A stretch of DNA of 64,000 bases from NCBI GenBank assembly GCA_030679995.1, contig JAUXSK010000006.1, forward strand, positions 10,328 through 74,327, in the 5' to 3' direction. Shown here in pieces: positions 2,820 to 27,236 of this stretch. The DNA comes from Candidatus Moraniibacteriota bacterium. GTDB taxonomy: Bacteria; Patescibacteriota; Minisyncoccia; Moranbacterales; UBA2206. Every line of letters begins with the position of its first letter. The stretch's first letter is position 1. A program made the position numbers and the translations under genes. A model generated the notes under the pieces. The model was given only the letters and a program-made list of their open reading frames with translations, had not been told where the DNA came from and did no database searches.

Positions 2820-4445
2820 ATGTATAAATTTTGGCAAAATCTGACCCTAGGAAAAAAAACGATCCTAATTTTGGCCGTTATCATACTGGCCGGTTTTATT
2901 TTCCGCACGTATAATTTTTCCGAATGGCTGCGGTTCAATATGGACCAATCGCGCGATATCAGCGTGGTTGAAGATTCAATCATGGAAAATTCCTGGCCTT
3001 CCCTCGGACCGAAAGCGGGTGGCACCGATTTCAAGCTCGGGCCGGCTTTCTACTATTTCCAAATCATCTCGGCTAAGATATTCGGCGCCACTCCCGAAGC
3101 GGCCGCGTACCCGGACCTGTTTTTCTCCTTGCTTTCGATCCCGCTATTTTTCCTATTAGCCAGGATTTATTTCAACCGGCCTATCTCATTGTCGCTGGCT
3201 TGGCTGTTTTCAATCTCATATTTCGTCATAAAATATTCCCGCTTCGCTTGGAATCCGAATTCAACCCCGTTTTTTACGATGCTTTTCCTCTATGCCGTCT
3301 ATCGCATCGGCGACTCGCAAGGAAGTAGGAAGATCTGGTGGGCGGTTATAGCGGGTGTCGCGATGGGAATCGGCATCCAGCTCCACACCACGCTATTGAT
3401 AATTATGCCGATCGGCGCGCTGTTTTTCGCATATTACCTTTTCAAGGACGGATCACTTACGAAAGGTTGTGTTATCGCGGTTGTGGCCGGAGCATTGTTA
3501 GTCAACGCTCCCCAAATCGCCAGCGAGCTTCAAACGGGCGGAATGAATACGCGCATTTTCATCCTGAGCGTTACTGAGAAAAATGAGCGCAATACCAGTA
3601 TGTTGGATAATTTAGCTTTGGATGTGTCTTGTCATATCCGGGCCAATTATGGCATCCTAGCTGCCTATGGCAATGAAGAAGAATGCGGATATGGCGACCT
3701 TGTGAATCGGATGGAGAAGTTGGATAGTAAAAGGGTTCCGTTGGCTGACAAGGCCATCTTCGTAGTATACGTATTTGCAGCGGCAGTCTTTTCCATCGGA
3801 GGGTATTATCTCGCGTTCCGTGAGTTAAAAAAACAAGAAGACAAGGCGAAAAAACTTTTTGCCAAATTGGCGGCGACTTATACGATCCTGACTTTCCTAT
3901 TTTTCATAGTCTGGGCGACCGAATTGTCGATGCGTTTTTTCTTGATTTTGGAATTCGTCCCGTTCCTTCTTCTGGGATTCTGGCTGAAATTCTTGTGGGG
4001 AAAAGCGGATAGGCGCTGGTTAGCGATCGCGCTGGTCATCGTGGCTTCATTTTTCAATTTGCAAAAAAACTTTGCGGTTTTCCGCGATTTGCAGTTCGGC
4101 GGGCGCGAAATCAACGGTGATTTCGAATATATCACCTTGGGCGAGGTGGATTTCATAGTGGGATATATGCGGGACAATGTCGCCGGGGGTAAAACTGCGT
4201 ATGTTGACGCGCAGGCTGGGTATCTTTTTAAATCATTGAAATCTTTGCGTTTCGTCGCGAAAAAATCGGATTTGGAAGTGGTCGAATTGAGCGAGGACGT
4301 GAAATTGGCGGGCGGATCGCAATTGTTCTATTTGAGGAATGCCGAGGAGAAATGCGAATTGCCGTCCAAGGTTTCGAAAAAATATGAAATTAAAAACTGC
4401 TCAGTTTATCGGCAGTTTTCAGTCTTTGATTTGAGGGTGAAGTAG
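2820..4445 (+). CDS. GT-C fold membrane glycosyltransferase paralog (ArnT/PMT-like)
   Basis: 541 aa with 'FNMDQSRD', 'LGPKAGGTDFKLGPAFYYF', 'AAYPDLFFSLLSIPLFF' and 'RFAWNPNSTPFF' shared with the 949 ORF. This is a tandem paralog. Confidence 0.65.
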   Translation: MYKFWQNLTLGKKTILILAVIILAGFIFRTYNFSEWLRFNMDQSRDISVVEDSIMENSWPSLGPKAGGTDFKLGPAFYYFQIISAKIFGATPEAAAYPDLFFSLLSIPLFFLLARIYFNRPISLSLAWLFSISYFVIKYSRFAWNPNSTPFFTMLFLYAVYRIGDSQGSRKIWWAVIAGVAMGIGIQLHTTLLIIMPIGALFFAYYLFKDGSLTKGCVIAVVAGALLVNAPQIASELQTGGMNTRIFILSVTEKNERNTSMLDNLALDVSCHIRANYGILAAYGNEEECGYGDLVNRMEKLDSKRVPLADKAIFVVYVFAAAVFSIGGYYLAFRELKKQEDKAKKLFAKLAATYTILTFLFFIVWATELSMRFFLILEFVPFLLLGFWLKFLWGKADRRWLAIALVIVASFFNLQKNFAVFRDLQFGGREINGDFEYITLGEVDFIVGYMRDNVAGGKTAYVDAQAGYLFKSLKSLRFVAKKSDLEVVELSEDVKLAGGSQLFYLRNAEEKCELPSKVSKKYEIKNCSVYRQFSVFDLRVK

Positions 4446-4452: not shown

Positions 4453-5973
4453 TCAAGCTCCGGGTTCGTTGCCGGAAAGTTCCTGTTCGATATCTTCTTT
4501 TTTGCGCTTCTTCACCAAAGACATAAAGTGGTTTATGTCTTTTTCGGTCAAGCCCTTCATCAGATAGAGAGTGAAGAGATAGACGGCGAAAATTATGGCC
4601 GCGGTCGCGATGAAAAAATACCGGCCGGATGGTAAAATAATGGTAAGTAGATAAGCGAACGCGCCGGTGAGCGCGACTTTGGAGGTTTCGCCGAGGCCGA
4701 GGCCGGCATCAAAATATTTTTTAGTCCAATAAAGCATCAGAAGCATAATAGCGAAAGAGGTGGCGGTCGTGGCGTAGGCGGAACCAAGGATGCCTAATTT
4801 ACGGATAAGCCAATAATTAGTCGCGATGTTCAGGGCCAGGCCGGCGAAGGAAATCCACATAGCCGTCTTGGTTTTTCCGGCGCCGTTCATTGCGAAACTG
4901 AGCACATAAAAAATCGTCAGGCAACCGACGCCGTAGACCAGGATCGCCATCGGCTCCGCACCAGCCAGATATTTCCGGCCATAGAGCAGTTGGAGGATTT
5001 CCTGGGAATAGGCGGACATCAGGACGATCATCGGCACCAGTAAAATCAGCATAATGCGCAAAGCGTTGTCGATGATGTTTTTGGCATTTTTGAAATTGCC
5101 ATTGACGCTAGCCTTGGAAACCATCGGCAACAAGAAAACAGTCATCGCGTAAAAAATATAATAGGGGATGCGTCCGACGGTAAGAGAGGCATTATATATG
5201 CCGGTCAGGGCGTCATCGCGCAAGATCGCTTGGACCATATATAAATCGATGCTGATCAACAGTTCGTAGGCCAGGAAAAAAACCACCACTTGCCAGCCGT
5301 AGTTGACCAGCTTGCGCCAATTGAAGTCGGTTTTGCCGGCCGTGGAAATCTGTTTCTGTTTTTCCAGTGCCGGGGAAACTTTGAATTTATCGATCAAGTA
5401 GGCGATCGCGAAAACTGAAAAAGGCGCGATGACATAGCCGGAAATCGAACCCTTGAGACCGAAAATGAAAGCCAATCCGACGACGAAGGCGATGCGGAAA
5501 ACGGACCGGATGGTTTTGAGGGTGGCCTGGGTATTGAACCGGTGCAGGCCGGTGTAGTAGGAAAAATAGAAAGAAGCGGCGGCGAAAGCTGGGATAATCA
5601 GGGTTGAGAAACGGAAGAGGGGAGCTAGAGTCGGATCGCCGAGTGCGGCGGCAATTAGGCCGGCGCTGGCATAGAAAACGACCGTGATGGTGCCGACGAT
5701 CAGGGTTTGCAGGATGATGGCCTGTTTTTTGATCCGCAAAACCAGGCGCGGGTCGGTTTCGAAAATTTCACTGATATATTTGGCCATAGCGGTCGGGATG
5801 CCGTTGCCGATAAGGACGATCACCATCGTAGTGAGGGTGATGACGAGGCCGTAGCGTCCGTAGTCTGCCGGGCCCAAAACGCGCCCCAGGATACTATGGA
5901 TGATGAAACCGGACAGATTGAAGATGATTTCGGAAAACGTGACCCAGAGAGCGGATTTTGCGATGCTTGACAT
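4453..5973 (-). CDS. MOP-superfamily oligosaccharide/polysaccharide flippase (Wzx/MurJ-like, 'polysaccharide biosynthesis protein')
   Basis: 506 aa with about 12-14 TM helices and a Gly/Ala-rich hydrophobic profile typical of Wzx-type flippases. It is embedded among glycosyltransferases. Confidence 0.65.
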   Translation of the reverse strand: MSSIAKSALWVTFSEIIFNLSGFIIHSILGRVLGPADYGRYGLVITLTTMVIVLIGNGIPTAMAKYISEIFETDPRLVLRIKKQAIILQTLIVGTITVVFYASAGLIAAALGDPTLAPLFRFSTLIIPAFAAASFYFSYYTGLHRFNTQATLKTIRSVFRIAFVVGLAFIFGLKGSISGYVIAPFSVFAIAYLIDKFKVSPALEKQKQISTAGKTDFNWRKLVNYGWQVVVFFLAYELLISIDLYMVQAILRDDALTGIYNASLTVGRIPYYIFYAMTVFLLPMVSKASVNGNFKNAKNIIDNALRIMLILLVPMIVLMSAYSQEILQLLYGRKYLAGAEPMAILVYGVGCLTIFYVLSFAMNGAGKTKTAMWISFAGLALNIATNYWLIRKLGILGSAYATTATSFAIMLLMLYWTKKYFDAGLGLGETSKVALTGAFAYLLTIILPSGRYFFIATAAIIFAVYLFTLYLMKGLTEKDINHFMSLVKKRKKEDIEQELSGNEPGA

Positions 5974-6007
5974 AATGTTGATTTAGGTGTATAATACAAT
6001 ATCGTGC

Positions 6008-6640
6008 CTAACTTTGAGCCTGTGCTATTTTTTCCTTTATTTCGGCAAAGACGGTTTCTGGGTAGCGGTTGCCATCGATTATCTCGGCACCGGTGAAATT
6101 TTGGAAATATTGATCATATAATCTTTTTTTATCAATGAGGTATTGCAGTCCTTGGTCCGGCTGGCGCCGGCGTCGCATTATCGCTTCCGGGTCAGTGTCG
6201 AGATAGAACGAAGTCGGATTCCCAATTTCCAATTTTGAAATTTTAAGAAATTCGCTTTTTTCCAGATAGCGGATATTGACGATATTGTCCCAAAAAAACC
6301 GGTCACTGAGGATATAGTCGTAATTTTCTTTGCGCAACCTGTCGCTTAACGAGCTGAATCGCCGCAGGTCGATCAGGAGCGCCAGTTTCCGGAGCTGGAT
6401 TCGGATCCAATCGGCTTTCGTGACACTTTTTTTGATATGTGGCTGAGCCTGGCATAATCCTTTTATTTTACAAATCAAGCAATATTTTTTCTTTAATTCC
6501 GCCAATTTGGTGGCGATGCCGAATTCGATGGCATGGAAATAAAAAACCCGCTTACCTTGCGATTCAAGATAAGTTTTGAGCATTTGGATTTGGGTGGATT
6601 TGCCCGATCCGTCCAATCCGGAGATAGTGATTATGTTCAT
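6008..6640 (-). CDS. tmk: thymidylate kinase-like P-loop kinase (dTMP kinase family)
   Basis: N-terminal 'IITISGLDGSGKSTQ' matches the GxDGxGKST Tmk P-loop. 'SDRFFWD' is a DRY-like motif and 'FYLDTDPEAIMRRRR' is Tmk LID-like. There is an unusual CxxC-containing insert ('YCLICKIKGLC'). Confidence 0.5.
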   Translation of the reverse strand: MNIITISGLDGSGKSTQIQMLKTYLESQGKRVFYFHAIEFGIATKLAELKKKYCLICKIKGLCQAQPHIKKSVTKADWIRIQLRKLALLIDLRRFSSLSDRLRKENYDYILSDRFFWDNIVNIRYLEKSEFLKISKLEIGNPTSFYLDTDPEAIMRRRRQPDQGLQYLIDKKRLYDQYFQNFTGAEIIDGNRYPETVFAEIKEKIAQAQS

Positions 6641-6865
6641 ATTTCGGTGGAATTATAGTAATATACGCGTGTGAGCCGGGTGTTTGCGATCGCATCAAAA
6701 TCATAACACAAATGGGCAACTAAGCCAATAAATTGGTGGGTGTGGATAGTGTTAAATGGGATAAATATGATTGCTTTATCCTCCGTATGATTTTTGTGGA
6801 ATAAAAAACGCCTCAACCTTGCGGTAATATTGGCGAAAATTGATGGTTTATCCATCCTTGTTTTA

Positions 6866-7066
6866 CTAATCTGGCATTGTTTCCCAGACCGATATGTCGT
6901 TCTTGAAACCGGCATCGGCATACATCTGATTCGCGAGTTTTTCAGACATCTTCGCAATTATGATCATTCCTTCCTTATCGCTATGCGTAATCGGCGCATC
7001 GTGTTTCAGTAAAAATACAAGGACTTTGTCATAGTCCTCAAAAGAACATACGGAAATATGCATCAT
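6866..7066 (-). CDS. hypothetical small protein (66 aa)
   Basis: The ORF is preceded on the - strand by a canonical Shine-Dalgarno AGGAGG 9 nt upstream of ATG (revcomp of 7067-7085 'gttcatatcctcctggc'). The protein has mixed hydrophilic composition. No recognisable family. Confidence 0.35.
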   Translation of the reverse strand: MMHISVCSFEDYDKVLVFLLKHDAPITHSDKEGMIIIAKMSEKLANQMYADAGFKNDISVWETMPD

Positions 7067-7118
7067 TGTTCATATCCTCCTGGCTTGGATTTTGTTTTAT
7101 GTCAGTGTCGTTTAATTT

Positions 7119-8612
7119 TCAATACATCAGCACCGCTACCGGTTCCATTTTGGCTACGGCTTTCACGATTTGGTTATCTTCCATCCCGGCGATGACTTCC
7201 TCCACGTCTTTATAATAGGAGCTGTCTTGCATTATGACGCCTGAAGATTTGGCGTTGAAAAGTTTGACATGGCTCTTCTTCATTTTTTTGAAAAGCGTTT
7301 CCTTATCGAGTGACGCATCGGCCAAGGGATTTTTCCGGCGACCGGTCCCATGGCTGGCTGAAAAGAAGCTGGATTGATTGGCATCGGTACCGGCGCAGAT
7401 ATAGGCCGGGGTGCTCATCGAAGATGGGATGAAAACCGGTTCCCCAGTCTGGGAGAAGAGCGGATGGTTCATCCGGGCCGGGCCGTTGGCGCGCACGGTG
7501 CCATTGCGATGCACCCAGACGTCCTTGCCGAAATGGTTTTTTTCACGATGGACGAAAACGTGGGGCATATCATAGAGCATATCAAGCTCAGGATTTTTGT
7601 CCAGAACCTTTTCAATCGCCATATCCAGCTGATGGGTAAGGATGGAGCGGTTGGCGTAGCCTTGGTTGGCGGCGGCGTTGTGGGAGGTTATGAATAGTTT
7701 GCCTTCCAGGCTTTGGTCGTCGTAGGAAAAATATTCTTTGGCATCCTTGAAAGATTCAATTTTTTTCCACAAGGCTTTGAATTCTTTCTTGTAGTCGGTT
7801 TGGAAAAGAAATTTGCCGATTTCCAAAATTATTTTCTGGCTCAGGTGTTCCTTTCGCTTGGGGGTGTAGAGGTAGGAAGCGTATTGTCCCAACAGTCCGG
7901 AACCGGTATGCAAGAGGAAGATGTATTGTCCTTCTTTCAAACCGAATTTTTCGGCGATTTCCGGATCGCGGATTTCGGTGACTTTCATCAGGTCCAGGAA
8001 ATGGTTGCCGGCGGCGCCCAAGATGCCCAATCGGTATTGGCCGATATGCAAGAATAATTTGGGAATCGCGTTGAGGATCTCTTTTTCGGTCGGAATTTCT
8101 GAGAAAAAATTGCCGCCGGCAAAAGTATTTTCAATTTCATTTTTGGTGCGCATTTTGAAAAAATCGCGGACCGGCTCCACGCCTTTGCGGCAGATATCCA
8201 TTATCAAAGAATAGGGGACCTTGGTGCCGACATAGGCTTTGGTGGGGATGACACGCACCAATTCCTGGAAAATCCGGTCGATATTCCCGGAAGTCAGATC
8301 GGCATCGGTAAGATTGGTTTTCAAAAAACGCATCCCGCAATTGGGCGCAGTGTCGTTGATTTGCGGCAAAAGATGGTGCTCGGAGGCGATGACGGTGCCG
8401 GTGGGATTTTTGCGTCCCTTCTTGCTGTGCACGTCGCTCATCGCGGCTACGTGATGGAAAATATGCGGATCGGAGGCGACGCCTTCAATTTCAGCCAGCG
8501 TAGCGTCGCTGGGCATCAGGTCGTCGGAAACATGCAGGATGGCCGGTATTTCCATCGCGTCGGTTTTAAATTCCTTTTTATGGGCGGAGAGGTTTTTGAT
8601 TTGATAAGACAT
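7119..8612 (-). CDS. rtcB: RtcB-family RNA-splicing ligase (3'-phosphate/5'-OH RNA ligase)
   Basis: 'AAMSDVHSKKGRKNPTGTV' matches the RtcB metal-binding 'AMPDVHxGyG' motif. 'NDTAPNCGMRF' matches 'NDI.CGxR', and 'SASHGTGRRK' matches the RtcB 'HGAGR' motif. Start set at the internal ATG (8612..8610, 'MSYQIKNL') because the longer ORF-track start (8774) overlaps the upstream GT4 gene and adds a Lys-rich low-complexity N-terminus. Confidence 0.8.
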   Translation of the reverse strand: MSYQIKNLSAHKKEFKTDAMEIPAILHVSDDLMPSDATLAEIEGVASDPHIFHHVAAMSDVHSKKGRKNPTGTVIASEHHLLPQINDTAPNCGMRFLKTNLTDADLTSGNIDRIFQELVRVIPTKAYVGTKVPYSLIMDICRKGVEPVRDFFKMRTKNEIENTFAGGNFFSEIPTEKEILNAIPKLFLHIGQYRLGILGAAGNHFLDLMKVTEIRDPEIAEKFGLKEGQYIFLLHTGSGLLGQYASYLYTPKRKEHLSQKIILEIGKFLFQTDYKKEFKALWKKIESFKDAKEYFSYDDQSLEGKLFITSHNAAANQGYANRSILTHQLDMAIEKVLDKNPELDMLYDMPHVFVHREKNHFGKDVWVHRNGTVRANGPARMNHPLFSQTGEPVFIPSSMSTPAYICAGTDANQSSFFSASHGTGRRKNPLADASLDKETLFKKMKKSHVKLFNAKSSGVIMQDSSYYKDVEEVIAGMEDNQIVKAVAKMEPVAVLMY

Positions 8613-8640
8613 AAATGGACCGTTAAGACGGATTAAATAC

Positions 8641-9762
8641 TTATAATTTTTCGTAAATTTTTTCGTAGACGGCGGCGACTTTCTTGATATCGAAATTTTC
8701 TTCGCAGAATTTCCGCCCTTCTTCACCGAGGATTTTTCTTTTTTCCGGGTGGTCTTGCAGGTTGAAAATTTCATCGGCTAATTCCCGGATATTTCCGGCA
8801 TGGACGGTGATGGAGTTTTTTTCATTAGCGAATTCTTTGAGGATCGGCAAATCGGAAACGATCACTGGTTTTTTGCAGGCCATCGGTTCTACGGCGGCCA
8901 GCGGGATGTCGAATTTTCCGTGCATATTCCGAACGGGGAAAATGACGATGTCGGAGAGGTTGTAGAGCTTGGCCATATCGGAGAAGATGTCAATAAAAAC
9001 CACGCGGTCCAATACCTTGTTTTCAGTGAATTTTTTGACCACCCATTCCTTTTTAGCTATCGCTGCGGGATCATTTTTCAGGCGGAAAGCTAAAATTATC
9101 TTTATATTCCTTTCCCTGAATTTTTCGGCTTGTCCGATCACCATTTCCACCATATCATCCGTAGCTCCCAGTCTGACATATTCACCCGCGAAGGTTACGA
9201 TAAAGTCTTCCTTGGTCAGTCCTAAATCATCCAAAATCCCGAGATCTTTCTCTTGGGGAGAATAATATTCCAGGTCGATTCCGGGATAGACCCGCTTGAC
9301 ATTTTTGAATCCCAGGCTGTTAAGTTTGTTTTTAGCATAGTCCGAATAAGTTATGATGAGATCGGCAAAAAGCATTTCTGCGTAATCCTTGTCTTGGAAC
9401 AAATCTTCGCGCAAAGTGGCGATGGTCTGGATGGTGCGGGCTTTTTTGTCCTTCACGAAAGTTTTGAAACCGAAAGCATTGAGTTTGTTGGGGGTGAGCA
9501 TAAAATGCATAATATCGAAATCTTTTCTGATGCGCATCAGCTTCAATAGACGGGCGCGTTGCAGCCAAGAAAGGTGGTTGGAGGTGTAAATCGGCCTTTG
9601 GCGCACGCTGGATGGCAGATCAGGCACGAGACCATTGGTTAAAAGATTAATTTCCACGCCGGAAATATTACGCGCCAGATAGTAAGCGAAATTTTTGGAA
9701 GCTTCGTCCCAAGGCGGGGCGATGGGCCGCGTGACCAGTAATATTTTTTTACGGATAGTCAT
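8641..9762 (-). CDS. GT4-family (GT-B fold) glycosyltransferase
   Basis: 373 aa with GT-B two-Rossmann-like organisation and a C-terminal EX7E-like region ('EPMACKKPVIVSDLPILKEF'). Lies in a glycosyltransferase context. Confidence 0.7.
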   Translation of the reverse strand: MTIRKKILLVTRPIAPPWDEASKNFAYYLARNISGVEINLLTNGLVPDLPSSVRQRPIYTSNHLSWLQRARLLKLMRIRKDFDIMHFMLTPNKLNAFGFKTFVKDKKARTIQTIATLREDLFQDKDYAEMLFADLIITYSDYAKNKLNSLGFKNVKRVYPGIDLEYYSPQEKDLGILDDLGLTKEDFIVTFAGEYVRLGATDDMVEMVIGQAEKFRERNIKIILAFRLKNDPAAIAKKEWVVKKFTENKVLDRVVFIDIFSDMAKLYNLSDIVIFPVRNMHGKFDIPLAAVEPMACKKPVIVSDLPILKEFANEKNSITVHAGNIRELADEIFNLQDHPEKRKILGEEGRKFCEENFDIKKVAAVYEKIYEKL

Positions 9763-9763
9763 A

Positions 9764-10138
9764 TTATTCTTGCATATTTTTATAAATTTCCTGCGTGTCC
9801 GTGCCGGTGGAAACCCGGATGGTCATTTTTTTATCGGATACGGTTACTAGGGGGCTCAATTCTTTTTTTTCTCCGGTTTGTATCCCGACATCGCCTTGGG
9901 AAATTTTTTCCGTATTGTCGGCCAGGATCTCCCAATGGAAATCTGTCTGGGAACTGAAATTTTCAATGACGAAATCCAACCGGTCAGATTTAGGATCGGC
10001 GAAAGATACGGCATACCAATCGGTGTTGTAGTCCGGGCTGTTATAGCGCGAATCGATGGCAAATAAATAGACGGAACTCGCCAGGAACAGCGCCAGGAAG
10101 AAATAAATAAAATTGTTATTTGGGTTCATTTTCAACAT
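9764..10138 (-). CDS. hypothetical signal-anchored/secreted small protein
   Basis: N-terminal hydrophobic segment 'FIYFFLALFLASSVYLFAI' followed by a hydrophilic domain. Translationally packed against the neighbouring membrane protein gene. Confidence 0.4.
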   Translation of the reverse strand: MLKMNPNNNFIYFFLALFLASSVYLFAIDSRYNSPDYNTDWYAVSFADPKSDRLDFVIENFSSQTDFHWEILADNTEKISQGDVGIQTGEKKELSPLVTVSDKKMTIRVSTGTDTQEIYKNMQE

Positions 10139-10139
10139 A

Positions 10140-12050
10140 TTAGTTGTTGCGATAATAAATATTGATACCGGGACTGGAATAGGTCTGGTCGAAATTTTTC
10201 AGTTTTCTGAATTGGGCGCTGTCGTAGCGCGGATTGACCATGATGAAATCGGTGCCGGTTTCAGCAAAGCAAGCCCGGGCTTCCGCGTTGTCTGGGCTGG
10301 CGATCATCTGCAGGGTGCACATTTCCCGCGGTTTGGTTTCATCTTCATAGCGTTTGAAATATCCGCGTGAAAGCGGGTACTTGTAGCCGCGCATCAGGAA
10401 GATCTTCATCCAGGAATCGGCGGTGATGTAGTTGTGGTCTTTCAGGATCATATCGTTTGATGAAGTTTTTTGGGCGAGGTAGCTTGAAGCGTCGAAGGTC
10501 TGTGCGACCGGAGCGAGATCGGTTTTGTCTTTGAAAGCCGAAGCTGAATCGGAAATCCCATCTACCAGGACGAAAGTCAAAACCACGATAAATCCGGCGC
10601 GGATAAGATTGCCGGACGATGCGAGTCGTTCGCTTGTCTTGGATCTTTTATCCGTTCCGAAGAGGGCATAGAGCGAATAGGCGCTGAGAATGGCGATGGG
10701 ATAGGATAGGTAATTACCGATGCGATTGCTAGGGAGATTGATAAATAGCAGATGGGGCTGGGTCGACATCAGAAAAATCATCACCGCCCAGGCGAGGATG
10801 ATAGAGTGGCCGAAATTCCTTTTCTTGAATCCGGCAATAAGGATTATGATGCCTAGAAGGCCCAAAGCGATCCGGGCTTCGCCGATGGAAGAGCGCAGAT
10901 TTTCCATCGTCAGTCCGACGCGCGTTTCTTTGCTAGGCGCTCCGACGGCGGTGTTGACGGCGCTATTTTTGACATAGTTCGGGGTGAAAATTAAAAAGAA
11001 AAAAACAAGTCCGGCAAAAAAGGTCGCCAGGACCTGAGGGGAAATGACCAGGCGTGACAAGGCCGGAAGAAGCTTTTTCCAATCCTTGAAATTGGCAGTA
11101 AAAAATACGGCGGCAATCATAGCAAAAATAAAGAGGAGGATAAAAGCGGTGAGATGATGGGTATAGAACAGTCCGAAAGTCGTGAAAATCGCGAGTGCGA
11201 GAAAAGCGCGAGAGCTTTTCTCTGCCGCAAAACCGGTTTCAAAAAATTCCATCGAACGGTAATAAAAATAAAAAGCAAGCGGCATCAGCAAATTTCCCAT
11301 GATATTGCCGACGACTCCGCCGCTGACAAACTTGGCTTGGGGTGAGGCTACGGCATAGAGGACGCCCAAAAAAAGCAAGACTAGGATTGCGATATTTTTC
11401 CGTTTAAAGATGCGCAGGGCCAAGATGAAAACCGTCAGTATGCCCAAAAGGTTCACAAGCAGAAGTGTTATGACGGGAAAGGCGGAAAAAACGCTGGCGC
11501 CGCTCAAAAGGCCGATTGTGCCGAACGGGATTTGCTCGCCAATGATAAAATCCGGCATCTGATCATAGTCCGGCAAACGATGGTTGTCGATCATCCATTG
11601 CGTCCAATACATATGGTGGCCCATATCGGTGGCAGTCGGGAAGACCGTGTCAGAAAGATAGGCTGTCTTAATGAAAATGGTCAGGAAAACCAGGAGGAAA
11701 ATCAGGACCGTTTGATGTCGGGAAAAATCGAACAATTTTTCTTCCGCCATTCCTGATTCCAGGCCGGCTTTTTTGGATCTGATTTTGTGGATGATCAGGC
11801 AGGCTGAAACAAGAAGCGCGATGCTGGCGGAAAGCGACAATCGGGTGATCGGCAAACCCAGTCCGGCCAGGGAAAAATTCAAAAAATCAACGCTGACAAT
11901 GCCAAGGCCGAATGACAAGATAAACCGTTCAAGCGCATTAAGCGCTTTGCTTTTTCCGAATATCGCCAATAGCAAAGCATAGCCCGGCAAAAAAAACGCG
12001 AAGGCCAGCGCGGCATAGAATAAAATTTGACTGGTTATGGCTTCAAGCAT
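10140..12050 (-). CDS. large polytopic membrane protein, putative GT-C-type glycosyltransferase (YfhO/PMT-like) with C-terminal extracytoplasmic domain
   Basis: 636 aa with more than 12 TM helices, a conserved acidic/His loop 'TDMGHHMYWTQWMIDNHRLPDYD', and a ~170-aa soluble C-terminal domain. Lies in the glycan locus. Confidence 0.4.
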   Translation of the reverse strand: MLEAITSQILFYAALAFAFFLPGYALLLAIFGKSKALNALERFILSFGLGIVSVDFLNFSLAGLGLPITRLSLSASIALLVSACLIIHKIRSKKAGLESGMAEEKLFDFSRHQTVLIFLLVFLTIFIKTAYLSDTVFPTATDMGHHMYWTQWMIDNHRLPDYDQMPDFIIGEQIPFGTIGLLSGASVFSAFPVITLLLVNLLGILTVFILALRIFKRKNIAILVLLFLGVLYAVASPQAKFVSGGVVGNIMGNLLMPLAFYFYYRSMEFFETGFAAEKSSRAFLALAIFTTFGLFYTHHLTAFILLFIFAMIAAVFFTANFKDWKKLLPALSRLVISPQVLATFFAGLVFFFLIFTPNYVKNSAVNTAVGAPSKETRVGLTMENLRSSIGEARIALGLLGIIILIAGFKKRNFGHSIILAWAVMIFLMSTQPHLLFINLPSNRIGNYLSYPIAILSAYSLYALFGTDKRSKTSERLASSGNLIRAGFIVVLTFVLVDGISDSASAFKDKTDLAPVAQTFDASSYLAQKTSSNDMILKDHNYITADSWMKIFLMRGYKYPLSRGYFKRYEDETKPREMCTLQMIASPDNAEARACFAETGTDFIMVNPRYDSAQFRKLKNFDQTYSSPGINIYYRNN

Positions 12051-12055
12051 AAGAT

Positions 12056-13177
12056 TTATTTTTTAGCGGTAACCTTTTCGATTTCTTCCAGGTATTTTTT
12101 GGAAATATTGTCCCAACTGAAATTATCAATGACATATTGCTTGGCTTTGGCGCCGAATCTTTCCCGGAAACCGTCATCAGACAGGAGTTCGTTGATTTTT
12201 TTGACATATGTGTCGGCATCGCCCGGTTCGACCAAGAATCCGTTTTCACCGTCCTTGATCGCGTCCTTGAGGCCTTCCAAGTTCGAGGTTAGGATGACTT
12301 TTCCGCAAGCTCCGCCCTCGATGGCGGTAATACCAAAGCCTTCCATCGATCCCGGCACTTTGATATTCGGGCCGACATGCATATCGGCGCAATTCATCAA
12401 TATCAATTTATCAGGTCTTTCGGGTATGTCGCCGATAAGTTTGGCTCGTTGTTGGAGGCCGAGTTCCCGAATGGCTTTTTCACAGACAGGGAAGTCGTTT
12501 TTATTCCCAGCCGAGTTATCGGAAACGACTCCGCCGACCGCGACGAAAAAATAATTATCCGGCAGTTTCGGCAGGACGTTGCGGATGAACCATTCGACGC
12601 CTTTGTGTGGGACGAATCTTCCGACTCTTAAAATGATTTTTTTGCCGGTGATGTCAATTCCTAAAACCTTTTCCATATCCTTCCGGGAACAAGGGATAGT
12701 CAATTCGTCCAGGAGAATGCCATTAGGTATGAAAACGCAATGTTCGCGTGAGATTCCGACTTTGACCGCTTCGTCGATAGTCTGGTTGCCGACCATGAAC
12801 AATTTATCCAATTTTTTCAAGGAAGGGATATTCACGGCCTTGTATATCCGGGAGAGCAGGCCTTTTTTATGGGCGAAAGTGATGTCCAGGCCGTGGACGA
12901 CGGAAAAGAATTTTTTCCCGGGATGGAAAAATTTCAGGGCGGCGCCGATCGGCGCCAGGACGCCGTTGCCGACCAAGCAGACATCGTAGTCGGACATCAA
13001 GAAAAGGGACCGCAAAAAGGTTACCGGCAAGAAAACAGGCAGCCACAGTTTGCCCTTGGTATTGGCGATCACTTTGACCGTAGCGTGTTTTTTCAAGCCT
13101 TCGGACAGGTAATAATTTTGCCTTTCGACTCCGCCGAAAATCGGCGGAAAAGAGTGGGAAATGAATAATATCCGCAT
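12056..13177 (-). CDS. GT4-family glycosyltransferase
   Basis: 'MRILFISHSFPPIFGGVE' is the typical GT4 N-terminus. The EX7E motif is 'EGFGITAIEGGACGKVILTSNLEGLKDAIKDGENGFL'. Confidence 0.8.
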   Translation of the reverse strand: MRILFISHSFPPIFGGVERQNYYLSEGLKKHATVKVIANTKGKLWLPVFLPVTFLRSLFLMSDYDVCLVGNGVLAPIGAALKFFHPGKKFFSVVHGLDITFAHKKGLLSRIYKAVNIPSLKKLDKLFMVGNQTIDEAVKVGISREHCVFIPNGILLDELTIPCSRKDMEKVLGIDITGKKIILRVGRFVPHKGVEWFIRNVLPKLPDNYFFVAVGGVVSDNSAGNKNDFPVCEKAIRELGLQQRAKLIGDIPERPDKLILMNCADMHVGPNIKVPGSMEGFGITAIEGGACGKVILTSNLEGLKDAIKDGENGFLVEPGDADTYVKKINELLSDDGFRERFGAKAKQYVIDNFSWDNISKKYLEEIEKVTAKK

Positions 13178-13427
13178 AATTTGCCTTAATATGTTACTTC
13201 AACATTCTACCTCAAAACAGGCCATCTTTCAAGGCCGGCAATCCCAGTGAATCAATGGTGTCGTATGGGCGGGATAATGTGTTTTTTAGCTACAATTTTC
13301 CAATCCCAGCACCTTCCATTACCACAATATTAATGTATAATGCAATTACGGCAAAAGCATGCGTAGTATTCGCAAAAACAACGATATTATTCATATTATG
13401 CGAAAATACTTCGCATAATAACCAGTT

Positions 13428-13895
13428 GTGGCGAAATCCGAATTCACTTGTCCCCTAATAAGTAAAAATATTTTTAATTCTATGATTATCACGATATGTG
13501 GAAGCTGTACCTTTGCTGAAGATATGGGCAAAGCGGCAGAACATTTGAAGAAAAAAGGCCATGAAGTTTATACGCCCGATCCATTGGTTACCGAAGAATG
13601 GTACCAAGAGAATCATGGTCGTGAGAATTTTCTTGATATGAAACCTGTCTGGACTAAAAATCACATGAAGAAAATAGAAGGTTCTGATGCCGTGCTGATT
13701 TTAAATAACGAGAAAAAAGGAATTAAAGGTTATTTTGGCTCCAACACTTTAATGGAATTGTCCGTGGCCTTTTTTCTTCAAAAGAAAATATTTTTACTAA
13801 ATCCGATAGATGAAGACCATCCGCATTACGAGGAGCTTATAGCAGTAGATTCAGTTGTTCTGCACGGAGATTTGGACAATTTTTCAAAGGAATAG
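13428..13895 (+). CDS. nucleoside 2-deoxyribosyltransferase-like (NDT/LOG-like Rossmannoid) protein
   Basis: 'MIITICGSCTF' and 'DAVLILNN...GSNTLMELSVAF' resemble the NDT family Gly-rich N-terminal strand and the 'DSGTAFEIG' catalytic-Glu motif. The true start may be the internal ATG at 13482. Located in the AT-rich islet. Confidence 0.4.
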   Translation: MAKSEFTCPLISKNIFNSMIITICGSCTFAEDMGKAAEHLKKKGHEVYTPDPLVTEEWYQENHGRENFLDMKPVWTKNHMKKIEGSDAVLILNNEKKGIKGYFGSNTLMELSVAFFLQKKIFLLNPIDEDHPHYEELIAVDSVVLHGDLDNFSKE

Positions 13896-14111
13896 AACAA
13901 GTGAATTCTGACATTGCACAACACCAAATATCTGGTTCAAAAATTTTTCACATTTATATAATCAGTAGCCAAAGCAGTATCGTTTTGTGTAAATAATTTG
14001 GGATGGAAACTGGAAGAATTAGCAACAAGTTCATCTCATCAATGGTTTGTTTTGTGAATCACAAAAGAGTTTATTAATCGGGAATATCCCCATTTTGTAG
14101 ATTTTTAAAAT

Positions 14112-15155
14112 ATGGAAAACTTTTCGAAAAAAATTAAAACACCGCAATCGCCATCGGAAATAACAACCGAATGGTTAGAGGGCATACTTAATAATACTTC
14201 AACCAACGAAATTGTCTCTATAGAATCAGATGATAGATTTAAGCCTGGCGGACACTTGGGAAAAATTGAAAAAGTTAAAATCACTTATGCTTCTCCTGAA
14301 TTTGAGCCGAAATCGGTAATTGTAAAATTTCAAAAATGTTCTGACCCAAAAAAAGAAGCGGAAATTTATCGACTCTTGGGGGAAGCGAAAATTTCATACA
14401 TCCCTCATTTATATGGGAAGTTTGGAGATGGGAACCTGGTCTTAGAAGATTTGTCCTCGACTCATTCAGTAATAAAAGATTTTGATATTAATCAAGTCCA
14501 AAAAGTAATCTCACTCCTTGCGGATGTTAATAGTAGATTCTGGGGCAATTCCGAGGTGCCGAAAGACAACCTGAGCCATTTCATTAATTCGATTAACATC
14601 AATTTTGAAAAAGGTTGGGAAAAATTTAAAAATCGATACGGAGAAAAACTCGGAAAGGAAATTGCCGATTTCGAATGGATATGGAAAAATCGTGAAATCG
14701 TTTCTGGTCATTACAATTCAAGCCCGACAACTTTATGCCATGGCGATGTAAACAGGTCTAATATTCTTTTCTCAAATGACAAAAGCAACAATCCAGTACT
14801 TATCGACTGGCAACTTTCCGGACAAAAAGTATTTCCTTTTGATATTTCTTATTTTCTGGTGAAAGCGCTAAGCGCAGAACAAAGACAAGAACATGAGAGT
14901 ACTTTGCTTAAAGAATATTATAAACTGCTGTCCGAAGAAATACGGTCAAATTATCCTTTCGATATTTTTATTTTAGATTATCGGGCATGCGCAACAAGGT
15001 CAATGCTTAGCGCAGTAACAAAATTTGGGCCGATATTCGAAAAGGATTTTAGTTATGACAAGGCCGATGAATTAGCAGAAAGAGTTATTGATGCCGTAAG
15101 AGACCTTAGACCTATAGAAGCCATTCAAGAATTACAAAATGTCAGGAGTTTTTAA
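14112..15155 (+). CDS. aminoglycoside-phosphotransferase/choline-kinase (APH/ChoK, Pkinase-like) family small-molecule kinase
   Basis: The Brenner catalytic motif is 'LCHGDVNRSNILF' (HGDxxxxN) and 'LIDWQ' matches the IDW/DFG-equivalent. Size 347 aa with a Lys-containing N-lobe. GC content is visibly lower than in flanking genes. Confidence 0.7.
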   Translation: MENFSKKIKTPQSPSEITTEWLEGILNNTSTNEIVSIESDDRFKPGGHLGKIEKVKITYASPEFEPKSVIVKFQKCSDPKKEAEIYRLLGEAKISYIPHLYGKFGDGNLVLEDLSSTHSVIKDFDINQVQKVISLLADVNSRFWGNSEVPKDNLSHFINSININFEKGWEKFKNRYGEKLGKEIADFEWIWKNREIVSGHYNSSPTTLCHGDVNRSNILFSNDKSNNPVLIDWQLSGQKVFPFDISYFLVKALSAEQRQEHESTLLKEYYKLLSEEIRSNYPFDIFILDYRACATRSMLSAVTKFGPIFEKDFSYDKADELAERVIDAVRDLRPIEAIQELQNVRSF

Positions 15156-15258
15156 TTTTGAGCATTCACCCCTGACCTCTCCCAAAATCCAAAACAAAAA
15201 AACTTTCAAACAAAAAAGACCTTCGGAAGGGGAAGGTCTTTGTAAAATAAACTTACGT

Positions 15259-15606
15259 TTAAAGATTAAGGATTTCCAGTGCCAATTCTGCGACTTTGTT
15301 TTTTTTCGCATCATGAGTTGCGCCTGCATTGAGCAACTCTTCCCTGTATTCGTACAGACCAGAACAAGCGATGATCGGTTTGGTGAAGCCGGCTTGGACA
15401 ATCTTCCTTACCAGTGACATTGAATTTGGACGGTCTCCGGGTACACACGCGTCCATAATGATCAAATCAATGTCGGTATTTCTGCGGAAAAGATCTTCCC
15501 CTTCCTCAAGAGTCGTCGCTCGCAAAACCTCAACTTTTCCATTAAGCTCCTCGTTGATTCTACGGAAATACCCATCATGATCTTCAATCACCAACACTTT
15601 TGACAT
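15259..15606 (-). CDS. single-domain response-regulator receiver (CheY-like REC) protein
   Basis: 'KVLVIEDHDGYF...DLIIMDACVPG...KPIIACSG' has acidic pocket residues, a phospho-acceptor Asp in 'IIMDA', and a conserved Lys near the C-terminus. SD 'AAGGAG' lies 8 nt upstream of ATG. Confidence 0.6.
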   Translation of the reverse strand: MSKVLVIEDHDGYFRRINEELNGKVEVLRATTLEEGEDLFRRNTDIDLIIMDACVPGDRPNSMSLVRKIVQAGFTKPIIACSGLYEYREELLNAGATHDAKKNKVAELALEILNL

Positions 15607-15803
15607 TATGCTGTCTCCTTTCTTTTTATCTAAAAGAACCCTTGAAATTCACCCAAATTCAACCCCTCAATCCAGTGAAACTTAGCAGATTTTTATTGTT
15701 TGGTCAAATATTTATGCTACGATTGAGATGTTCTACAAAAGCGGGCTTAAATTTCAGATACTCGGATATGTCAGCCGGAATATCTTAAGAAAATTTTTTT
15801 ACA

Positions 15804-16286
15804 TTGATGATGAAAAATATCAAAAATGCTTTTAAATGGATAATCGGCCTTCTGATGCAAAATAATATTCCTTTCCAAATTTCCGGAGGATTTGCTGCAA
15901 AACTATATGGCGCCAATCGTCCTCTGTTTGATATAGATATTGACATAAAAGGAAAGGATTTTGACAAGCTCTTGCCATTTGTAGAAGACTATATTTTATC
16001 TGGACCTAAGAGATACTTGGATGATTCATTTGATCTTCAACTTTTGACATTGGAATATCAAGGCCAACGCATTGACTTGAGTGTAAGTGAAAACTCTAAG
16101 ATATACAACGCCAAAACAAAGCAATGGCAAGAGTGTGAAACAAATTTTAATTCATTTAAAGAGTTTGAAGTTTATGGATTAAAAGTTCCTGTAATCACAT
16201 GGCAAGAACTTGTCGAATACAAGAAAATTATCAGAAGGCCGACTGATTTAGAAGACATTGCCGCTATAACCAAAAAATTTTCTTAA
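15804..16286 (+). CDS. ANT(2'')/AadB-like minimal nucleotidyltransferase family protein
   Basis: 'ISGGFAAKLYGANRPLFDIDIDI' is the Pol-beta-type NTase GS/GG..DxD motif. Size (160 aa) and layout resemble the aminoglycoside 2''-adenylyltransferase family ('GGWAIDARLG...DIDL'). Confidence 0.5.
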   Translation: MMMKNIKNAFKWIIGLLMQNNIPFQISGGFAAKLYGANRPLFDIDIDIKGKDFDKLLPFVEDYILSGPKRYLDDSFDLQLLTLEYQGQRIDLSVSENSKIYNAKTKQWQECETNFNSFKEFEVYGLKVPVITWQELVEYKKIIRRPTDLEDIAAITKKFS

Positions 16287-16339
16287 AATACATCCGATAA
16301 CGTGGCCTGTCCGGTTCAGGAATTTTTATAACGATTTTT

Positions 16340-17326
16340 TTATTTTCCAGTATCGTATTTGTCTTTTTTCCATTGGTACATCAGCTCTTCCGTCAGTTGC
16401 CGGGAAGATTTTATCATATCGGCGATCAAGGCGAATACGACGAATTGCAATCCGACCAGAAACAGCGCGATGCCGAAAATCAGATAGTTGCGGTATTGGG
16501 TTATCTTGAAATCAGGAAAATAATTAAAAAGGAAGGTGCCGAATGAGATGAGCGAAAGGAAAACCAGGAGTAATCCGGGTATCCCGAAGAACTTCATCGG
16601 CCGGATATCACGAATAGCCTTCAAAATGATTTTGGTGGAGTTATTGACGAATTTCCAGATGGATTTGGTAATTTTGGCTTCGCGGTTGTCGAAATAGGTG
16701 ACTTCGATCGGCACCCAGAAAAGCTTCAGGTTTTTGCCGATGGCATCGATAATCGTTTCCTGGGTATAGGTGAAATGGACATTGGTCAGGTTCAGGCGTA
16801 AAAGCGTTTCGCGGTTATGGGCGCGAAAACCGCAGGTCAGGTCGTTGGTTTTGTAATTGAGAAAAAAACCGATGACGCTGGCAGCGAACTTGTTCAAACT
16901 CTTCCTGACCCACGGAATGTTTCTAGCCTCGATTTCCCCGAACCGATTGGCGATGACCATATCGGCTTTTCCGTCCAAAATAGGCGTCAGTAACTTGGGA
17001 ATGTCATAGGGATTGAATTGGCCATCAGCATCAATATTGACCATTAGGTCCGCGTTATTCCTAAGTGAACTTTCGACCGCCTGCTTGAAGGAATAAGCCA
17101 GGCGCCGGTTGGGTTTATAGGAAATGATGATATCCGCTCCGGCCTCTTTGGCTTTGCGCGCCGTATCGTCAGTCGAACCGTCATCGATTACCTGGATGAT
17201 TTTTTCATCGATAATCGCGCCTTTCCCCATATAAAAATCAGCGGAAAAACTTTCTCTGATTTTTTTTATGGTCCCTCCGATAAGCGCTCCTTCATTATAG
17301 GCCGGTATGTTTACGATAAGCTTCAT
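16340..17326 (-). CDS. GT2-family polyprenyl-phosphate sugar transferase (DPM1/ArnC/GtrB-like)
   Basis: 'KLIVNIPAYNEGALIGGTI...VIDDGSTDDT...DADGQ' is the GT2 DXD region. Two C-terminal TM helices, typical of lipid-carrier glycosyltransferases. A logical donor-maker for the GT-C enzymes in the locus. Confidence 0.8.
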   Translation of the reverse strand: MKLIVNIPAYNEGALIGGTIKKIRESFSADFYMGKGAIIDEKIIQVIDDGSTDDTARKAKEAGADIIISYKPNRRLAYSFKQAVESSLRNNADLMVNIDADGQFNPYDIPKLLTPILDGKADMVIANRFGEIEARNIPWVRKSLNKFAASVIGFFLNYKTNDLTCGFRAHNRETLLRLNLTNVHFTYTQETIIDAIGKNLKLFWVPIEVTYFDNREAKITKSIWKFVNNSTKIILKAIRDIRPMKFFGIPGLLLVFLSLISFGTFLFNYFPDFKITQYRNYLIFGIALFLVGLQFVVFALIADMIKSSRQLTEELMYQWKKDKYDTGK

Positions 17327-26291: not shown

Positions 26292-27236
26292 ATGGAATTA
26301 TTGAGGACTTTCCGGAACTTGGGTAAAGGCGATGCTGGCTTGGCAGGAGGCAAAGGCGCTTCATTGGGCGAAATGACACAATCCGGCATTCCGGTGCCAC
26401 CCGGTTTTGTGGTTTTGGCCGGGACTTTCGAGAAATTTCTGGAAGAAACTGATTTGGGCGTCGAGGTTGATGCGATTCTGCATACAGTGGATCACAATGC
26501 GATGCATACGGTCGAAGAAGCTTCGGAAAAAATCCAGACTTTGATTAAGAACGCCCAGATGCCAGGAGATATCGCCAAGGAGATAGAAAGGGAATTTAAA
26601 AAACTCGGCGCTGAATTTGTGGCAGTGCGATCGAGTGCGACAGCGGAAGACGGAGCGGAAAACGCCTGGGCAGGACAGTTGGATTCTTATCTCAATACGA
26701 CCGAGAAAGACTTACTAGAAAAAGTCCAACATTGTTGGGCTTCACTTTTTACTCCCAGAGCCATTTTTTATCGGTTTGAAAAAAATCTTCACAAGCAAAA
26801 AATTTCGGTGGCGGTGGTAGTGCAAAAAATGGTGGAGAGCGAATTTTCCGGCATCGCTTTTTCGGTGCATCCGGTGACAGAGGACTACAATCAGCTCATC
26901 ATCGAAGCCGGTTTCGGCTTGGGCGAAGCGATCGTATCCGGACAAATCACCCCAGACAGTTATGTGGTGGAAAAAAATCCGAGGAATATTTTGGATATCA
27001 ACGTTTCTACGCAGGAACGCGGAATTTATCGGGCGAAAAACGGCGGCAACGAGTGGCGGGATATTCCCGAGCCGCAAGCGTCCGCGCAAGTCCTGACGGA
27101 AAAACAAATTTTGGAATTGTCGGAAATAATCCTTGGCATCGAAAAACATTACGGTTTTCCTTGCGATATCGAATGGGCGTTCGAGGGCGGCAAATTCTAC
27201 ATCGTCCAAAGCCGGCCGATTACGACTTTAAATTAA
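26292..27236 (+). CDS. stand-alone PEP-synthase/PPDK N-terminal ATP-grasp nucleotide-binding domain protein (PPDK_N)
   Basis: 'GGKGASLGEM' and 'VAVRSSATAEDGAENAWAGQ' are signature PpsA/PPDK_N motifs. The terminal 'DIEWAFEGGKFYIVQSRPITT' is the final ATP-grasp motif. The protein stops there (314 aa) with no phosphohistidine or TIM-barrel domain. Confidence 0.8.
   Translation: MELLRTFRNLGKGDAGLAGGKGASLGEMTQSGIPVPPGFVVLAGTFEKFLEETDLGVEVDAILHTVDHNAMHTVEEASEKIQTLIKNAQMPGDIAKEIEREFKKLGAEFVAVRSSATAEDGAENAWAGQLDSYLNTTEKDLLEKVQHCWASLFTPRAIFYRFEKNLHKQKISVAVVVQKMVESEFSGIAFSVHPVTEDYNQLIIEAGFGLGEAIVSGQITPDSYVVEKNPRNILDINVSTQERGIYRAKNGGNEWRDIPEPQASAQVLTEKQILELSEIILGIEKHYGFPCDIEWAFEGGKFYIVQSRPITTLN

Follow-up and report, generated by a model that had tools for sequence, protein, structure and literature searches.

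The envelope-glycan locus of a Candidatus Moraniibacteriota bacterium is interrupted, between a GT4 and a GT2 glycosyltransferase gene, by an AT-rich block of four genes. The locus lies in the 64,000-nucleotide stretch of DNA analysed here (NCBI GenBank assembly GCA_030679995.1, contig JAUXSK010000006.1, positions 10,328 to 74,327 of the forward strand), which is referred to as the window and within which all positions are counted. The four genes encode a nucleoside 2-deoxyribosyltransferase-like (NDT-like) protein, a small-molecule kinase, a single-domain receiver (REC) and a small nucleotidyltransferase (NTase). The block is quite probably a lineage-specific mosaic of single-gene passengers, acquired independently of one another at the module boundary between GT2 and GT4. 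Its horizontal acquisition is strongly supported, and the junction itself varies recurrently, most relatives having nothing there and some having other small cargo. An initial annotation, made from the sequence alone, had described the genes as a modification quartet that might inactivate antibiotics or act in signalling or defence. The evidence reviewed below points to an ordinary accessory-gene islet drawn from known superfamilies, which should not be annotated as APH/ANT (aminoglycoside phosphotransferase/nucleotidyltransferase) resistance and which gives no sign of a new resistance, defence or signalling system. What it does provide is clean documentation of a hot spot for insertion, at a module boundary within a conserved glycan locus of the candidate phyla radiation (CPR), with both the empty and the differently filled states at hand.

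Insertion at a variable junction of the glycan locus

The block differs from its surroundings in base composition. Its GC content of 0.362 compares with 0.442 over the remainder of the window; values of 0.35-0.39 extend over 13000-16500 between flanks of 0.44-0.49, and the 3-kb windows that start at 13001 and 13501 show the highest tetranucleotide deviation in the 64 kb (L1 0.31-0.32; median 0.18). The calculated profile is not uniform, and the AT-rich character ascribed to the block in the initial annotation is confirmed, as is that of its non-coding spacers: five of these, 103-304 bp long and with GC contents of 0.31-0.38, make up 28% of the 3162-bp interval between the GT4 and GT2 genes. 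The GC content at third codon positions (GC3) is 0.36 for the NDT-like gene and 0.31 for both the kinase and NTase genes, which are three of the four lowest values among 61 open reading frames (ORFs; mean 0.51, standard deviation 0.077). With a GC3 of 0.46, REC does not deviate from the ORFs of the window.

Shine-Dalgarno (SD) usage singles out a different gene. An SD-like motif is missing from 52 of the 57 called genes, in agreement with the earlier statement that most genes of the window have none, and among the four islet genes it is present in REC only. The earlier count of two SD-bearing genes in the block holds for REC; the other gene so counted, a 66-aa ORF at 6866, has a real SD but lies 6.2 kb outside the block. 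That ORF (6866-7066, minus strand; outside the 57 genes scored) is preceded by a strong AGGAGG sequence, and it and REC have the only two strong SD sites seen. SD usage and composition had been proposed as a joint sign of acquisition. Both register odd genes, although not the same ones, REC being unusual by its SD alone and the other three by GC3 alone; because the two measures flag different genes, at least two acquisitions, and not one, are indicated.

Comparison with relatives locates the insertion. With the flanking GT2 as query and one genome taken per species, 19 Moranbacteria/Parcubacteria loci were recovered (GT2 identity 60-93%; loci are cited here by L numbers). A backbone of UDP-glucose dehydrogenase (UGDH), GT2, GT4 and a membrane protein is collinear in 17 of the 19, and none of the four islet genes is encoded in any of these 17 loci, at the GT2|GT4 junction or beside it, including those whose flanking proteins are 87-98% identical. 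The gap between GT2 and GT4 is 7-1043 bp in the collinear relatives, versus 3162 bp in the window. It is 7-133 bp in most of them (7 bp in L031, 10 bp in L028, and 121 bp in L040, whose flanking proteins are 87-94% identical) and 658-1043 bp in four (L023, L024, L037 and L038). In the comparison with L023 and L040, homologous DNA breaks off at about 16310/16350 and is picked up again at about 13240, just upstream of the conserved GT4 promoter. In L023, the closest relative (flanking proteins 93-98% identical), the junction carries genes for a perfect Nudix-box protein and a 95-aa membrane protein (2299-3100), and unrelated ORFs are found there in L024 (10988-11867), L037 (10952-11600) and L038 (2370-3058). 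Horizontal acquisition, first proposed from composition and SD usage, is thus upheld by the non-uniform profile together with the absence of the block from the 17 collinear relatives, and an orthologous placement of the four genes in related genomes was not observed. Logan contig L001 (SRR13727519) is 100% identical to the window over 3763 nt spanning both junctions, with reads that may overlap those of the window's own assembly.

The GT4 protein is 94% identical in L023, 89% in L040 and 44-60% in the other relatives. In L024, L025 and L041 it is only 47-48% identical, though GT2 and UGDH are 85-87% identical in the same loci; such a divergent GT4 beside a conserved GT2 and UGDH argues that the locus is a mosaic with a module boundary at the GT2|GT4 junction. 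The envelope-glycan locus as a whole occupies window positions 51-24851 and encodes a PMT_2-type transferase, a Wzx-like flippase, several GT4s, a DUF6541 membrane protein, GT2, UGDH, a Wzy_C ligase and a LytR-CpsA-Psr protein, so that the domain content of the flanking genes bears out the glycan setting recognized earlier. The locus also contains, at 6008-6640 and 7119-8774 (minus strand), genes for a thymidylate-kinase-like protein (a match to the P-loop region only) and an RtcB RNA ligase; non-glycan genes are therefore present elsewhere in the locus too.

The description of the four genes as a quartet finds no support in either their layout or their distribution. They lie on both strands, with spacers of their own. 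The NDT-like and kinase genes, both on the plus strand, are 216 bp apart, with a TATAAT-like box in the spacer; REC, on the minus strand, converges with the kinase gene on a terminator-like hairpin, and the NTase gene is divergent from REC across 200 bp. A set of 10 independent contexts of homologues was examined (three for NTase, four for the NDT-like protein, three for the kinase and one for REC), with tblastn of the four proteins against loci through L101 and with ORF or gene tables for L104 and L139-L141. In none of them was a second gene of the quartet adjacent to the homologue, so that the same four-gene block, or even two of its genes side by side, was not encountered in these contexts. 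The nearest pairing, and the only one in the fetched flanks, is an NDT-like paralogue (30% identical) 9 kb from the L015 kinase homologue. A PADLOC search with the four genes gave no meaningful match, only a chance-level 12-bit match of the kinase. Since the four genes are found separately in other genomes, a resistance or defence unit is not supported, and the genes would represent separate accessory functions without demonstrable coupling. Genes for DNPH1/NDT-fold proteins, EcKL-type kinases and TM1012-like NTases circulate as singletons among CPR genomes.

Insertion or replacement by recombination in the conserved flanks would be the most economical route into the junction. The NDT-like, kinase and NTase genes would have come from donors of about 33-37% GC, and REC would have arrived separately, bringing an SD of a kind that is not used by the host genes. 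Some findings tell against a mosaic of independent acquisitions. The usual hallmarks of mobility were not found at the block: there is no tRNA, there are no direct repeats at the borders, and the four genes are not recombinases; no integrase or transposase is encoded within it, so the route of insertion is one that we infer. Wherever NTase homologues were seen, they stood out from their genome as AT-rich, which may reflect a bias of the family and not recent transfer. The NDT-like and kinase genes are co-directional and share a single terminator, making local co-transcription possible, and with three or four contexts per family a weak association between genes could have been missed.

The junction resembles variable-cargo junctions, genomic islets and integron arrays in having a fixed site between conserved genes and differing cargo in close relatives, and in a conserved promoter-bearing leader, common to the window and L023, that stands before different cargo. 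It differs from them in that the block lacks an integrase, shared attC-like sites, a tRNA and direct repeats, and each of the repeats that bracket its genes is private to the gene. No tRNA genes were found in the whole window, and Rfam searches gave only chance-level matches, both at gathering thresholds over the whole window and at E-value thresholds over 13150-16400. Carriage by phages was considered and set aside: viral contigs yielded only two distant (36%) relatives of the NDT-like protein and none of NTase.

A comparable arrangement was noticed in two Patescibacteria loci, L013 and L015 (about 5000-14000 in each), which have in common a backbone of WecG-NUDIX, GluRS, NUDIX, a variable stretch, M23 peptidase, integrase and SerRS. 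The variable slot holds a homologue of the NDT-like gene in one and of the kinase gene in the other, and looks like a second hot spot for accessory genes that draws on the same gene pool.

Table 1. Positions of the islet, its genes and its border features in the window (aa, amino acids; a dot marks features without strand)
Feature	Position	Strand	Basis or remark
GT4 glycosyltransferase, flanking (backbone)	12056..13177	-	Pfam
GT4 promoter TTGAAA-17-TAGAAT, conserved	13204-13232		upstream of GT4; comparison with relatives, promoter scan
Inserted AT-rich block (islet)	13241..16310	.	between conserved GT2 and GT4 genes
Leader, non-coding, common only to the window (and its identical contig L001) and L023	13295..13437	+	78% identity to L023 3088-3228
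Left arm, inverted repeat bracketing the NDT-like gene	13425..13451	.	core TCCGAATTCACTTGT at 13437-13451
NDT-like, DNPH1/NDT-fold protein, 137 aa	13482..13895	+	AlphaFold2 (AF2) and Foldseek
Right arm, NDT-like bracket	13897..13922	.	begins 2 nt past the stop codon
EcKL/DUF1679-type small-molecule kinase, 347 aa (APH/choline-kinase/MtnK clan)	14112..15155	+	Pfam
Intrinsic-terminator-like hairpin between convergent kinase and REC genes	15215..15241	-	10-bp stem (4 G-C pairs), then T-run
Divergent single-domain receiver (REC-like), 115 aa	15259..15606	-	PF00072
Shine-Dalgarno AAGGAG of REC, spacing 8	15615..15620	-	best SD-like match among 57 called genes
Left arm, inverted repeat bracketing the NTase gene	15749..15799	.	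core 15781-15799, TATCTTAAGAAAATTTTTT
TM1012-like minimal nucleotidyltransferase, 159 aa, at the edge of PF10706	15807..16286	+	AF2 and Foldseek
Right arm, NTase bracket	16272..16325	.	overlaps the last four codons and stop
GT2 glycosyltransferase, flanking (backbone)	16340..17326	-	Pfam

The four gene products

The NDT-like assignment of the initial annotation is supported by fold and not by profile, the protein scoring 15.1 bits against a PF05014 cut-off of 28.8. Its gene starts at the ATG at 13482, not at the GTG at 13428. The AF2 model, with a predicted local distance difference test (pLDDT) score of 95.5, retrieves DNPH1, NDT and BcmB in Foldseek (E-values 1e-4 to 6e-4, TM-scores 0.55-0.63), and these proteins account for all of the top 25 matches in the PDB; the family profile found no significant relative by sequence in the same database. 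Distant homologues (P0160, P0162 and P0166) do score PF05014. A Rossmann-like fold is thus shared with DNPH1/Rcl (2'-deoxynucleoside 5'-phosphate N-hydrolase), the NDTs (PF05014) and the BcmB/MilB CMP N-glycosidases. The protein has an N-terminal beta1 'ICGS' loop, an Asp conserved in at least 90% of members (D69) and an invariant Glu in a G-x-x-T-x-x-E-x-x-x-A motif. Within the family S8, N75, Y84, G86, E92 and A96 are invariant; E92 is the Glu of this motif, which reads GSNTLMELSVA. It may correspond in position to the catalytic Glu that DNPH1, the NDTs and the CMP N-glycosidases carry. The protein differs from all of them in being only 11-18% identical, in falling under the profile cut-off and in belonging to a tight family of its own. 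The modelled fold makes an N-glycosidase or a transferase with a nucleoside or nucleotide as substrate the most likely function, and the enzyme would probably cleave the N-glycosidic bond of such a molecule obtained by scavenging.

Members of this family are about 135 aa long, are 60-86% identical, and occur in CPR bacteria and on at least one archaeal contig. Four homologues were fetched, from L141 (99% identical), L007 (86%), L010 (80%) and L013 (72%); a cluster look-up of homologues returned no taxon names. The 80%-identical protein (L010 10001-10408, also in L011 and L012) comes from contigs that are clearly archaeal, with genes for L44e, L15e, TFIIE-alpha, Hjc, the exosome, the proteasome and Rpb6, and its gene is compositionally native there (33.6% GC). 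Identity of this level on an archaeal contig, with native GC, argues for recent gene flow between CPR bacteria and archaea in this small family, and bears as well on nucleotide scavenging in ultra-small symbionts. In L141 the 99%-identical copy stands alone, next to the gene of a Vut_1/YhhQ-type transporter. A PEP-utilizers gene adjoins the homologue in L007.

The kinase passes the cut-offs of four Pfam families: DUF1679 (63.6 bits, cut-off 24), EcKL (57.6, cut-off 22), Choline_kinase (38) and APH (35.5, cut-off 23.2). The APH profile search proposed in the initial annotation was therefore positive, and the APH/choline-kinase Brenner motif described there is present, the translation carrying LCHGDVNRSNILF...IDWQ. 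Its catalytic residues are family invariants, K72, E82, H210, D212, N217 and D232, which form a complete catalytic set that includes the H210-x-D212-x4-N217 signature. A profile search of the PDB gave methylthioribose kinase MtnK (2olc, E 1.3e-5) as the best solved relative, and an NCBI protein 100% identical to the kinase is named 'DUF1679 domain-containing protein [Candidatus Moranbacteria bacterium]'. In its full catalytic set and its four family matches the enzyme resembles the EcKL/DUF1679 proteins, MtnK, choline kinases and APH. With the APH resistance enzymes it has in common the kinase-like fold signature with an HxDxxxxN Brenner motif and a metal-binding Asp. It is unlike these enzymes in matching no aminoglycoside, homoserine or thiamine equivalog of NCBIfam: among the resistance models APH(3') (APH_3p) scored 12.6 against a cut-off of 205 bits and the other APH models gave no match, nor did the homoserine and thiamine kinase equivalogs. 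By its residues the kinase is predicted to be active and to phosphorylate a small-molecule hydroxyl; the nearest solved relative acts on a ribose derivative.

Kinase homologues were fetched from L015 (72% identical), L021 (61%) and L018 (58%). They are compositionally native in genomes of 35-36% GC, and their neighbours are often NUDIX, methyltransferase and cupin genes. Two homologues are fused to other domains, P0179 to PF01503 (PRA-PH) and P0231 to PF07931 (a chloramphenicol-phosphotransferase-like P-loop kinase); these fusions may hint at a nucleotide-related substrate.

REC had been called a single-domain CheY-like receiver, and it is one, with a PF00072 score of 30.7 bits against a cut-off of 30.2 and with conserved pocket residues. 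The acidic pocket E8-D9, the phospho-acceptor D52, S82 and K102 are those of CheY-like single-domain regulators; D9, D52, S82 and K102 are each conserved in at least 90% of 50 family members. REC differs from these regulators in lying barely at the Pfam cut-off, in a short beta5 that has a 6-residue deletion relative to CheY and Spo0F, and in belonging to a separate small clade. That clade gave 768 matches at E<=0.001 among 1.8 billion proteins and 217 cluster representatives at E<=1e-10, which are mostly 113-121 aa long; most of these relatives score under the PF00072 cut-off, and in those that are fused the extra regions have no Pfam match. The nearest relative with fetched context, in L104, is 50% identical. 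No histidine kinase (HisKA/HATPase) was found among the genes scanned at window positions 51-30677, and a PHROGs search with the four genes gave nothing meaningful beyond generic receiver matches for REC. On these residues REC is probably a stand-alone, divergent receiver that can be phosphorylated.

For NTase, described earlier as AadB-like, the motif (ISGGFAAKLYGANRPLFDIDIDI in the translation) and the fold stand, and membership in PF10706 does not, at 19 bits against a cut-off of 21; the profile is matched by 23 of 47 family members (E<=0.01; best 7e-8). The start codon is the ATG at 15807. The AF2 model (pLDDT 96.6) is closest in Foldseek to TM1012, a putative NTase of Thermotoga (E 5e-10, TM-score 0.79-0.81, root-mean-square deviation 2.7 A), with lower TM-scores for MenT1 (0.58-0.71), ANT(2'')-Ia (0.61-0.63) and LnuA (0.60). 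All of these have a minimal NTase fold of the Pol-beta type, marked by G-G, D-x-D and a third Asp; in the NTase family the invariant residues are G28, D42 and D44, with G27 and D90 conserved in at least 90%, so the enzyme appears to be catalytically intact. NTase differs from ANT(2'')-Ia and LnuA in its sub-cut-off PF10706 score, in having no ANT or Lnu match among the NCBIfam resistance models and in being closer to TM1012, and from the MenT1 toxin-antitoxin system in having different neighbours in 4 of 4 contexts, with no conserved antitoxin-like neighbour. TM1012, its closest solved relative, is itself uncharacterised; it is the closest template for the NTase domains of fukutin and FKRP (PMC2794190).

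The NTase homologues fetched are 82% (L002), 64% (L005) and 60% (L139) identical, and those in L002 and L005 are compositional outliers in their genomes. The gene immediately upstream of the L005 homologue (L005 9128-9958) encodes a NAGPA-domain protein (phosphodiester glycosidase), and the L002 homologue lies near a GT4 gene. The NAGPA neighbour and the TM1012/fukutin template together give a weak hint of glycan phosphodiester chemistry.

Inverted repeats that bracket single genes

The NTase and NDT-like genes are each enclosed by an inverted repeat, and at 19 and 15 nt these are the two longest such brackets among 56 genes of the window, the others being 12 nt or less. They constitute a concrete, testable oddity. 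Around the NDT-like gene, the core at 13437-13451 pairs with 13897-13911 at 14 of 15 positions, and around the NTase gene 18 of the 19 positions of the core TATCTTAAGAAAATTTTTT pair with 16272-16290; each figure was reached in 0 of 100 shuffles. The arms of the NDT-like bracket extend to 27 nt, and the predicted duplex dG of this bracket is -25.3 kcal/mol (z -6.2 versus shuffles). The same bracket is present in L141 (967-1009 / 1441-1485), whose DNA becomes homologous to that of the window precisely at 13425, where the left arm has its outer edge; the bracket was not found around the homologues in L007, L010 and L013. The left core arm of the NTase bracket lies 8-27 nt upstream of the ATG, and the bracket has a gapped extension of about 50 nt in the window; its predicted duplex dG is -18.3 kcal/mol (z -4.1).

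The NTase bracket occurs in 4 of 4 lineages, the window, L002 (2824-2846/3314-3339), L005 (9965-9995/10465-10495) and L139 (about 2970-2983/3465-3478), and reaches 31 nt in L005. Its outer parts differ by lineage (CGGA versus GTTAGGTG) with complementarity retained, and the core shows a compensatory A/T change. The duplex energies predicted for it run from -14 to -33 kcal/mol (z -2.7 to -10). The arms were searched for elsewhere, as attC-like sites or as solo arms, and none were found; the other cargo at the junction in L023, L024, L037 and L038 is not bracketed. Private arms and unbracketed cargo argue that the repeats are not shared attC-like sites.

There is some small chance that the NTase gene, and the NDT-like gene in this lineage, are self-contained, repeat-bracketed single-gene units, either as an undescribed minimal mobile or invertible cassette or through pairing of the 5' and 3' ends of the mRNA. 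In each unit the repeat may tie the stop-codon region to a site lying 8-57 nt before the start codon, move with its gene between unrelated contexts and co-vary by lineage. As cassettes, such units could circulate in CPR bacteria and, in the case of the NDT-like family, also in DPANN-type archaea; as RNA elements, the paired mRNA ends could control how a MenT-like and potentially toxic NTase is translated where genomes have no SD sites. Inversion of the NTase segment was looked for and rejected, L139 and L140 being identical, and a resemblance of the L023 junction to the left NTase arm (11 of 15 positions, in low-complexity DNA) was too weak to be taken as a trace of inversion.

The leader has a promoter-like site, TTCATA-18-CATAAT, at 13390-13419 and a perfect 10-bp palindrome, ATTATGCGAA-N5-TTCGCATAAT. 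It precedes different cargo in the window and in L023, and it is absent from L040. As a repeated element or riboswitch it was discarded: the sequence of about 140 bp was seen only in the window, L001 and L023, and it has no Rfam match.

Alternative explanations and other features of the window

Two alternatives would give some of the genes a joint metabolic role. The NDT-like and kinase genes might form a local two-step salvage pathway, transcribed from the leader promoter to the hairpin at 15215-15241, in which the N-glycosidase frees a sugar (phosphate) that a ribose-type kinase then phosphorylates. In its favour, both genes point the same way, a promoter-like site lies in the leader, one terminator follows the kinase gene, MtnK is the best solved relative of the kinase, the fold of the NDT-like protein matches DNPH1 and NDT, and kinase homologues often adjoin NUDIX hydrolase genes and in one case are fused to PRA-PH (PF01503). 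The pathway is nonetheless unlikely, as the two genes do not adjoin each other in any of 7 other contexts, are separated here by 216 bp with a TATAAT-like box of its own, and the NDT-like unit is also found alone beside the Vut_1 transporter at 99% amino-acid identity. Decoration of the envelope glycan with a phospho-alcohol, by a choline-kinase-like kinase and a LicD/fukutin-like transferase of NTase fold, is a less probable role still. It would suit a block inside a glycan locus, a kinase that passes the Choline_kinase cut-off, the use of TM1012 as the template for the fukutin/FKRP NTase domains (PMC2794190), the NTase homologues beside NAGPA (L005) and near GT4 (L002), and weak matches of viral LicD-family models. 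It is opposed by the LicD Pfam family, matched by 0 of 47 NTase family members, by TM-scores of only 0.45-0.50 to LicD-like folds, by the lack of a cytidylyltransferase in the block, by the finding that kinase and NTase never co-occur in the other contexts examined, and by relatives that have the same glycan backbone and lack both genes.

The proposals carried by the initial annotation fare worse. That an APH-type kinase and an ANT(2'')/Lnu-type NTase form an antibiotic-inactivation pair is very improbable. The kinase does pass the APH cut-off of Pfam, 23 of 47 NTase family members match PF10706, and the NTase fold is similar to those of LnuA and ANT(2'')-Ia (TM 0.60-0.63), but the NCBIfam resistance models are far off (12.6 versus 205 bits for APH(3'), and nothing for ANT or Lnu), EcKL/DUF1679 and MtnK are better matches for the kinase and TM1012 for NTase, and the two genes were never linked in the other contexts examined. 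We give as little credence to a signalling, defence or toxin module, with NTase as a sensor or MenT-like toxin and with the NDT-like protein in the part of effector or REC in that of regulator or antitoxin, in spite of the resemblance of NTase to MenT1 (TM 0.58-0.71), the kinship of the NDT-like fold with TIR and DNPH1-type N-glycosidases, and the divergent arrangement of the REC and NTase genes. PADLOC found nothing for the four genes, no gene pair is conserved across contexts, NTase lacks a conserved neighbour across 4 contexts, no REC homologue lies beside NTase or kinase homologues, and the layout suggests that the genes are transcribed separately. Scarcely tenable, finally, is an ancestral block that became AT-rich merely through relaxed selection on weakly expressed genes; it is in line with the AT-rich NTase homologues in other genomes and with the lack of mobility genes, and is countered by the absence of the block from 17 of 17 collinear relatives (among them those with flanking proteins 87-98% identical), by the different cargo in the closest relative, L023, and by the 99%-identical NDT-like copy in the other context of L141. 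A mosaic of independently acquired passengers remains the preferred explanation of the block.

Elsewhere in the window a second AT-rich stretch, at 50171-53745 (minus strand; GC 0.37-0.40), contains four consecutive ORFs of similar size (285, 290, 285 and 285 aa). The lowest GC3 of the window (0.28) belongs to a gene at 59708-60937 (minus strand) whose 409-aa product has a PEP-utilizers mobile domain at its C terminus, and related, split PPDK-like genes are found at 26292-27236 (PPDK_N) and 28175-29695 (PEP-utilizers).

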